This document shows positions 1 to 310 of a stretch of 64,000 nucleotides of DNA, piece by piece. Origin of the DNA: an uncultured Actinomycetes bacterium (GTDB lineage Bacteria; Actinomycetota; Actinomycetes; Streptosporangiales; Streptosporangiaceae); assembly GCA_963781085.1 (NCBI GenBank), contig CAWAES010000048.1:112606-176605 (forward strand), read 5' to 3'. Made by a program: the position numbers and the translations under genes. The number at the start of each line of letters is the position of its first letter. The first letter of the stretch is position 1. The notes below the pieces were generated by a model, which worked only from the letters and a program-made list of their open reading frames with translations, had not been told where the DNA came from and made no database searches.

Positions 1-183
1 GCGCTGGTCCATCACCTCGATGCTGCGCGCGTGCAGGCCGAGCGAGCGGACCACCCTGGTCGGCTCCGCGTCCTTCTCCAGCACGACGACGTGCACGCCG
101 TGCAGCCGCAACTCGCCGGCCAGCATCAAGCCGGTCGGCCCGCCGCCGGCCACGATCACGTCGATCATGATCACGTCGGTCAT
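1..183 (-). CDS. FAD-dependent aromatic-ring (group A) monooxygenase, first 61 codons only (gene runs off the left edge); Rox-like candidate because of the upstream RAE
   Basis: Own minus-strand translation from ATG 183..181: [61 protein letters not shown]. It has a GxGxxG FAD fold resembling the N-terminus of the 23072..24640 product. It is not in the ORF track because it is truncated. Confidence 0.8.
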
Positions 184-243
184 GAACCCCCCGTTCACCA
201 GGTCGCGTTTCTGGCTTCGGCTGCAGATTCTGCACGACGACCC

Positions 244-262
244 GGGTCTTGCCGCAAGCCCC
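244..262 (-). promoter_or_regulatory. RAE-like 19-bp inverted repeat (rifamycin-associated element), copy 1
   Basis: Minus strand reads GGGGCTTGCGGCAAGACCC, about 60 nt upstream of ATG 183. A near-identical copy lies at 22893..22911. A putative -10 CAGAAT (minus strand) sits at 227..232. Confidence 0.75.
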
Positions 263-285
263 CCAGTGCGCTATACGTTGAAAGT

Positions 286-310
286 GGCAGGGAGCGGGAA
301 CCTCCCTGCC
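286..310 (-). terminator. GC-rich hairpin followed on the minus strand by ACTTTCAAC, just upstream of the RAE module
   Basis: GGCAGGGAG-7 nt-CTCCCTGCC, 76 nt downstream of the stop of the co-directional 387..749 ORF. A hairpin in the same relative position but with different sequence lies at 22848..22869. Confidence 0.45.

Follow-up and report, generated by a model that had tools for sequence, protein, structure and literature searches.

The window, by which we mean the whole 64-kb stretch of DNA that was analyzed, contains two copies of the rifamycin-associated element (RAE), each made up of the RAE palindrome, a common flanking block, and a GC hairpin. According to the accessible parts of the published RAE work, the element is a 19-bp palindrome that lies upstream of rox, helR, rph, rgt, and arr (Spanogiannopoulos et al. 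2014; Surette et al. 2022; Hurst-Hess et al. 2022) and is required for rifamycin induction at other loci. A search with the RAE pattern GGGGCTTGCSGCAAGMCCC gave two sites in the 64 kb, both with 0 mismatches, where 0.29 matches were expected by chance; 0 of 100 shuffles reached 4. Both sites are 19-bp inverted repeats near GGGGCTTGCGGCAAGCCCC, and both have a resistance-type gene directly downstream, which is rox for copy 1 and a Rox-like gene followed by helR for copy 2. The modules in the window are like the published RAE in having the same 19-bp palindrome, the same position upstream of a gene, and the same phylum, and both sites are ordinary members of this known promoter element. Features of the two copies and of the module found throughout the family are given in Table 1.

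Genes beside the two copies

The part of the copy 1 gene present in the window matched Pfam FAD_binding_3 and gave 97 bits with the NCBIfam family rif_monoox over 55 profile positions. The pattern match and this best match bore out the original prediction that a second RAE module precedes a Rox-type gene. The copy 2 monooxygenase scored 334 bits with rif_monoox, under the 800-bit cut-off, and scored equally (approximately 335 bits) with rif_monoox and two neighboring families, all under their cut-offs; for that reason its product is Rox-like and not a certified Rox. The N-termini of the two monooxygenases were 41% identical over 58 amino acids. The copy 2 open reading frame has two possible starts. 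GTG at 22970 lies at the distance from the RAE that is typical of the module and adds 34 poorly conserved residues before the FAD-binding motif; GTG at 23072 is preceded by its own ribosome-binding site, GAGAGGAG.

The helR homologue begins 107 nt 3' of the copy 2 monooxygenase gene and has no RAE of its own; therefore, copy 2 probably drives a two-gene rox-like/helR operon in which helR is co-transcribed. In a Trebonia MAG (locus L078), a 97%-identical module stands directly before helR, and the helR leader GATCGGAGCTGATGSCGTG is common to that locus and the window. Because of these two observations, the monooxygenase gene looks as if it was inserted between module and helR in the window.

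Several other sequences near copy 2 were noted. The spacer between the rox-like gene and helR (24661-24694) contains one copy of the motif CCAGAACAC(G/A)A.AACC, which occurs three times in tandem on the other strand at 28545-28609, upstream of a minus-strand gene beside an MBL-fold gene. The sequence CCAGAAC also belongs to the conserved RAE leader. Divergent from copy 2, the minus strand of 21091-22755 encodes a YCII-domain protein and then an ECF-type sigma factor with DUF6596; the gap from the YCII gene to the copy 2 hairpin is approximately 330 bp if the YCII start is near 22500.

Table 1 Features of the two RAE copies in the window and of the family module (module positions are counted from the first base of the palindrome as +1, with negative numbers upstream relative to the direction of the gene)
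Feature	Position	Strand	Sequence	Basis or remark
RAE copy 1, hairpin through Box D	221-310	-	GGCAGGGAGGTTCCCGCTCCCTGCC-ACTTTCAACGTATAGCGCAC-TGG-GGGGCTTGCGGCAAGACCC-GGGTCGTCGTG-CAGAAT-CTGCAG	Written 310..221
Copy 1 T-rich tail	311..324	+ (antisense for module)	TTTGCCTTTCGCCG	Directly after hairpin; terminator scan
Copy 1 GC hairpin	286..310	+	GGCAGGGAG / CTCCCTGCC	9-bp stem; -22 kcal/mol, z = -2.6
Copy 1 predicted antisense start	about 286	+		Predicted
Copy 1 Box U	266..285	-	ACTTTCAACGTATAGCGCAC	Flank conservation, 107 modules
Copy 1 antisense hexamer in Box U	274-279	+	TACGTT	-10-like, directed away from gene
Copy 1 RAE palindrome	244..262	Read on -	GGGGCTTGCGGCAAGACCC	Pattern match
Copy 1 Box D	227..232	-	CAGAAT	Predicted -10 of sense promoter
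Copy 1 predicted sense start	about 219-220	-		Predicted
Copy 1 rox gene	1..183	-		First 61 codons, ends at window edge; NCBIfam rif_monoox best match
RAE copy 2, hairpin through Box D	22848-22933	+	GGAGGGGTACCTACTCCCCTCC-ATTTTCAATCTATAGCGCAC-AGG-GGGGCTTGCCGCAAGACCC-GGGTCGTGCCG-CATAAT-CGCAG	Written 22848..22933
Copy 2 A-rich tract	22834..22847	+ (sense)		Gives antisense RNA tail TTTTCCTTGG
Copy 2 GC hairpin	22848..22869		GGAGGGG / CCCCTCC	7-bp stem; -17.5 kcal/mol; terminator-like, both strands
Copy 2 Box U	22870..22889	+	ATTTTCAATCTATAGCGCAC	
Copy 2 antisense hexamer in Box U	22881-22876	-	TAGATT	-10-like
Copy 2 RAE palindrome	22893..22911		GGGGCTTGCCGCAAGACCC	Pattern match
Copy 2 Box D	22923..22928	+	CATAAT	Predicted -10 of sense promoter
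Copy 2 predicted sense start	about 22935	+		Predicted
Copy 2 Rox-like FAD monooxygenase	22970..24640	+		FAD_binding_3 and Rng_hyd_C
helR homologue	24748..26907	+		UvrD-like domains; 82-88% DNA identity to RAE-linked HelR genes elsewhere
Module, A-rich tract	about -57 to -46	Sense		A-rich
Module, hairpin 3' arm	-32..-24	Sense	CTCCTTGCC	
Module, Box U	-23..-4	Sense	ACTCTCAAC-N-TATAGCGCAC	Short form CACTCTCAAC-N-TATAGCGCAC
Module, palindrome (RAE)	+1..+19	Both		Core
Module, spacer and Box D	+25..+37	Sense	GTGCCG-CAGAAT-C	
Module, leader	to about +70	Sense	GGCCGAGGCCAGAACCTGCGGAAATGGGG	Approximately 30 nt

A conserved module around the palindrome

The two copies in the window had been predicted to share a 65-nt block with about 55 identical positions. 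The block is real and its coordinates were right; the ungapped count is 53 of 65 (81.5%). The longest inverted repeat of the whole window is the pair 209-302 and 22853-22946 (94 nt, 78%), which is formed by the two copies, and both copies precede genes for FAD monooxygenases; these two features would fit a recent segmental duplication.

Genomes were scanned with the palindrome alone (GGGGCTTGCNGCAAGNCCC), one genome per species, and at least 120 loci were obtained. Because the palindrome alone served as the probe, the flanks were unselected. Among the loci listed, 121 sites had enough flank and were stacked on the palindrome, and 107 of them had the full layout; the remaining sites were chance matches in unrelated phyla or diverged modules. 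Conservation thus reaches well beyond the 19-bp palindrome, as had been predicted. The first long downstream open reading frame, determined for 98 listed loci, encoded HelR in 37, a Rox-type monooxygenase in 31, Rph in 19, a glycosyltransferase (Rgt) in 4, Arr in 3, and an MFS pump in 1. Again among the listed loci, unrelated modules had a median identity of 75% over the 65-nt block, and 26% of all module pairs were at least as similar to each other as the two copies in the window. Each window copy has nearer relatives in other genomes, copy 2 being 97% identical to the module of the Trebonia MAG. Given the 75% median identity and these nearer relatives, we conclude that the similarity of the two blocks is a family-wide constraint and not the result of recent duplication. 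With block identity ordinary for the family, N-termini as diverged as given above, the same block in front of five unrelated gene families, and only 0.29 palindromes expected in the window, recent segmental duplication or chance was rejected as having a negligible probability, in agreement with the original prediction.

The RAE is therefore the core of a conserved module of approximately 130 bp and not a palindrome alone. Toward the gene, the order of its parts is A-rich tract, GC hairpin, Box U, 19-bp palindrome, Box D, and leader. Conservation is at background level beyond about -60 to +70, and the start codon of the gene lies mostly 54-60 nt past the palindrome among the listed loci. Both palindromes in the window read AAGACCC, as had been pointed out, and the asymmetry holds for the family. 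Palindrome position 16 (window 247 and 22908) varies among the modules (A, 53%; G, 34%; C, 13%; A and G together, 87%), whereas 98% have G at its partner, position 4; the asymmetry is thus real and is oriented relative to the gene, the imperfect side being the gene-proximal one. With G as the central base of the palindrome in 75%, it is the antisense half that better matches a -35 (TTGCCG).

The possibility that the leader or the surroundings of Box D form a conserved RNA structure was considered and rejected: RNAalifold gave no consensus structure for +24 to +78, and there was no excess folding energy (mean z-score about 0). A known RNA family was rejected as well, because Rfam had no relevant covariance-model match at E <= 1 in either window region.

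Modules that are complete or slightly diverged also occur outside the Actinobacteria (loci L076, positions 2230-2360; L012, positions 6100-6230; L106; L025; L096; L119; L115; L080; and L020), although the RAE is described as actinobacterial in the literature surveyed. The hosts are Lysobacter, Marilutibacter, a Pseudomonadota MAG, Acidobacteriota, Polyangiaceae, Chloroflexia, and Dormibacterota, and the modules still precede genes of the Rgt, Rox, or Rph type or for PRK06834-type monooxygenases. The Lysobacter module has lost the GCGCAC part of Box U and has kept A-17, T-13, A-12, the hairpin, and the A-tract. Locus L078 has a feature found in that lineage only, a perfect 13-bp inverted repeat (CATAATCGCTGGC...GCCAGCGATTATG) approximately 30-70 nt downstream of its palindrome (2564-2582, minus strand); the repeat encloses the -10 box and the predicted sense start and is not general in the family.

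The upstream hairpin

The hairpins that had been predicted in the two window copies, with stems of 9 and 7 bp, were both found at the expected positions. They had been taken to be unrelated in sequence, and this did not hold: both are variants of the consensus GGCAAGGAG...CTCCTTGCC and differ from each other by compensatory changes. Against our covariance model R1, the copy 1 hairpin scored 54.7 bits and the copy 2 hairpin 22.5 bits (E = 0.08).

A test set beforehand by the original prediction, namely the presence of a hairpin and a TCAAC/TATAGCGCAC box at other RAE loci, had a favorable outcome. A clean stem was present in 69 of the 107 loci, usually with 9-10 bp, a loop of 4-9 nt, and a 3' arm ending at -24 +/- 1; the listed loci contained 62 distinct 3' arms. 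The proposed check for covariation in the flanks of RAE loci was carried out in two ways, and by both the arms covary. When the arms were swapped between loci, the mean pairing of the native combinations was 6.69, compared with 5.16 +/- 0.13 for the swapped ones, and 0 of 5000 permutations gave a value as high. For the second, a covariance model was built from 15 loci and used to align 43, since MAFFT alone left the far arm unaligned. In this alignment 98.1% of the cells were paired, 6 of the 10 pairs changed on both sides, and there were 25 compensatory cells compared with 4.0 +/- 1.7 in shuffles; controls with a slid arm were 53-64% paired. It is thus the structure that is conserved in this hairpin and not the sequence, as for a terminator. 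Because the length of the loop varies while the arms covary, the hairpin is more likely to act as a nucleic-acid structure than as a palindrome bound by protein. Wobble pairs slightly favored the antisense RNA (23 vs. 13). Mycolicibacterium and several Nocardia and Rhodococcus loci have a weak hairpin.

Terminators were scored by the rule that a GC-rich stem-loop must lead directly into a T/U-rich tract on the strand being transcribed. Of 107 loci, 45 conformed to this rule on the antisense strand and 5 on the sense strand, with 4 and 1 in the respective shuffled controls. The antisense stem begins at -24 in 39 loci, and in the family the 12 sense-strand nt immediately preceding the stem consist of 47% A and 4% T. 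In the window, copy 1 passed on the antisense strand only, that is, on the plus strand, antisense to rox; copy 2 passed on both strands. The upstream neighbor was divergent in 47 and co-directional in 44 of 91 loci, and the hairpin was equally common beside both kinds (32 of 47 vs. 29 of 44). Having found the T-tract on the antisense strand and a frequency independent of the orientation of the neighbor, we concluded that the hairpin is a component of the module that faces backwards, and its assignment as the terminator of the upstream gene was rejected on the same two grounds. Its main role would be to stop transcription that leaves the module backwards rather than to block read-through from upstream. 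The original prediction of an insulating terminator was therefore right in making the hairpin part of the module, with covariation that is real, and wrong in polarity.

Boxes U and D as proposed back-to-back promoters

In the flanks of the 107 modules, the only fully invariant positions are A-17, T-13, A+32, and T+36 (100% each), with A-12 at 99%; position -14 is free (0.14 bits). These bases are arranged symmetrically. Box D spans 21-26 bp from the center of the palindrome, and the antisense hexamer of Box U, TAnGTT, spans exactly 21-26 bp on the opposite side; each of the two hexamers is 19 bp from a TTGCSG half of the palindrome. Both boxes carry the A2/T6 signature of a -10 element. The hexamer of Box U has the form TAnnnT expected of a sigma-A/sigma-70 -10 element (T1 99%, A2 100%, n3 0.14 bits, T6 100%), and counting 7 nt past TAnGTT places a start at the conserved CC (-24/-25), where the hairpin has its first base pair. 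Box D, CAGAAT preceded by G, stands at the site of the -10 of the mapped P2 promoter of Mycobacterium smegmatis helD. Promoter scans of either window copy called no canonical sigma-70 promoter with a 16-18 bp spacer.

Because the hexamers are mirror-symmetric and the predicted start falls on the first base pair of the hairpin, our preferred reading is that the module may comprise two back-to-back promoters that share the palindrome at the -35 position, with the antisense one running into its own terminator; we assign this reading a probability of roughly 50%. The sense promoter would consist of TTGCGG inside the RAE, a 19-bp spacer, and CAGAAT, and would drive the resistance gene. The antisense promoter would be built from TTGCCG in the opposite half of the RAE and TAnGTT on the other strand of Box U, again with a spacer of 19 bp, and would start at about -24, the first base of the hairpin. 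Its RNA, approximately 35 nt in length and thus little more than hairpin and U-tract, would terminate at once. We consider it an even bet that Box U directs antisense transcription and that the RNA so made is the hairpin itself. The hairpin would then be the module's own antisense terminator, which would also shield upstream genes. The conservation, symmetry, covariation, and T-tract polarity described above were observed directly. Antisense firing of Box U we infer, as we do a contribution of the interplay between the promoters to induction by rifamycins, whether or not a factor also binds the palindrome.

Several results count against the back-to-back arrangement. A spacer of 19 bp is long for a promoter. 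Only 69 of the 107 loci have a clear stem anchored at -24, and 45 of 107 pass the T-tract rule. In addition, the invariant A and T would suit a -10 hexamer on both strands of each box: because their spacing in Box U also gives nAnnnT on the sense strand (CAACnT), the sequence by itself is compatible with either orientation of Box U.

The orientation bears directly on one alternative, in which Box U would be read on the sense strand. CAACnT would then be the -10 of a first sense promoter, P1, starting at about -6 and interfering with a second, P2, as proposed for mycobacterial rpoB/helD, and the hairpin would be an insulator or bidirectional terminator against upstream read-through. This alternative agrees with a review that reports two sense-oriented promoters upstream of M. 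smegmatis helD (PMC10719064) and with the two sense hexamers, which both start with CA; the C that begins CAACnT also begins the validated CAGAAT. Also in its favor, copy 2 of the window is terminator-like on both strands, and 44 of 91 upstream neighbors are co-directional. Such an insulator is difficult to reconcile with the strand bias of the terminator scan (sense 5, antisense 45 of 107) and with a hairpin frequency that is unchanged when the upstream gene is divergent. The A-tract adjoins the stem at any loop length from 4 to 9 nt and is therefore unlikely to be a phased UP element of a sense promoter. A sense P1 would also lack a fixed -35, the variable loop lying at that place, and the 99% conserved A-12 would have no role in its hexamer. 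The reported P1 start, approximately 20 bp upstream of the RAE, does not fit a sense Box U (about -6) and matches the antisense start predicted here. We therefore consider tandem sense promoters unlikely.

A second alternative is that Box U (TCAAC-N-TATAGCGCAC) is the binding site of a putative RAE regulator or co-factor, with the hairpin stopping incidental antisense transcription from a symmetric operator/promoter. Bases -11 to -4 (TAGCGCAC) are conserved at 79-95%, beyond what a spacer or discriminator needs, and this excess over promoter requirements hints at a protein-binding site; the field, moreover, assumes a dimeric factor on the palindrome. No such factor is reported in the searchable literature up to 2026, and the Lysobacter module has dispensed with GCGCAC while keeping the invariant bases, hairpin, and A-tract. 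A binding site would also leave unexplained the exact mirror placement of the invariant A and T and the start of the stem 7 nt after the hexamer. On balance this alternative seems rather improbable to us.

Warman et al. (2021, Nat Microbiol) reportedly described bidirectional promoters that arise from symmetry of the -10 element as by-products of sequence symmetry. Box U, read as CAACnTA, gives nAnnnT on one strand and TAnnnT on the other and could likewise fire both ways, with starts 18 bp apart (about -6 and about -24). Unlike promoters of that type, it is invariant across phyla and is coupled to a dedicated terminator.

Comparison with known rifamycin-responsive promoters

The published RAE is a 19-bp cis element; what is described here is a wider module with a hairpin, Box U, mirror-symmetric -10-like hexamers, and a leader. 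None of these four features is described in the searchable texts, outside of which lie the 2014 PNAS and final Mol Cell versions. That earlier accounts of the RAE stop at the palindrome, as had been claimed, was nearly right; the exception is a 2022 review that places the RAE of M. smegmatis helD over the -35 of the mapped promoter P2 and names a second, upstream promoter, P1, with a start approximately 20 bp upstream of the RAE (PMC10719064). P2, with its -35 in the RAE, corresponds to the Box D promoter. The position reported for the P1 start coincides with the antisense start predicted here, whereas both promoters are reported as sense-oriented for helD and rpoBC, and no hairpin is mentioned (PMC10719064; Zhu et al. 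2018).

In Bacillus subtilis, rifampicin is sensed at helD/pps by a convergent pair of sense and antisense promoters, and a terminator that lies upstream of the sense promoter ends the antisense RNA, which is approximately 90 nt in length (Sudzinova et al., NAR 2026, PMC12802891). In this alarm the resistance gene is induced by rifampicin, its sense promoter is weak, the antisense promoter is consensus-like with a spacer of 19 bp, the terminator of the short antisense RNA is an intrinsic one, and no dedicated regulator takes part. In the RAE module, the hairpin has the polarity of an antisense terminator, and a candidate antisense -10 is present. The two differ in geometry: the B. subtilis promoters are convergent, with starts 39 bp apart, and interfere by collision, whereas the candidate RAE promoters diverge from back-to-back positions on a common palindrome, and about 67 bp separate their starts. 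A convergent antisense promoter like that of B. subtilis was rejected for the RAE leader, since there are no invariant -10 positions downstream of the sense start; the best candidate in the family modules has a key base at only 55%. The same report (January 2026), from the laboratory that wrote the 2022 review, states that actinobacterial RAE genes are not regulated in the B. subtilis manner and that the mechanism of the actinobacterial RAE is still to be elucidated (PMC12802891).

Plain competition between the two candidate promoters was rejected by reasoning as a model for induction, because a polymerase arrested on an overlapping decoy would result in repression and not induction. Induction of the sense promoter would instead call either for a factor on the palindrome or for a positive effect of the arrested polymerase on the neighboring promoter. 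The latter leads to the idea of a factor-free rifamycin sensor, with RNA polymerase itself as the receptor and back-to-back promoters on a palindromic double -35, which we regard as a long shot. A strong antisense promoter would normally cycle polymerase into the immediate terminator; rifamycin-bound polymerase would be arrested there, and output would shift to the weak sense promoter, for example because a long-lived arrested complex helps or frees the neighboring site. If true, such a sensor would be the divergent actinobacterial counterpart of the convergent B. subtilis alarm and would account for the fact that no RAE-binding regulator has been found.

Implications for the RAE

The locus is a typical member of a known element, and the value of the finding lies in the family-wide anatomy beyond the palindrome, of which the literature searched gave no description; the orientation of the promoters and the step at which a rifamycin may be sensed are inferences. 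In Mycobacterium abscessus the RAE controls arr and helR, and the induced resistance there precludes treatment with rifampicin. A symmetric promoter-like module with its own antisense terminator would turn the hunt for a regulator into a few direct experiments, and the extended consensus is a more specific probe than the palindrome for rifamycin-resistance genes, including those of non-actinobacterial phyla. The anatomy of the module thus provides a testable lead on how bacteria sense rifamycins.
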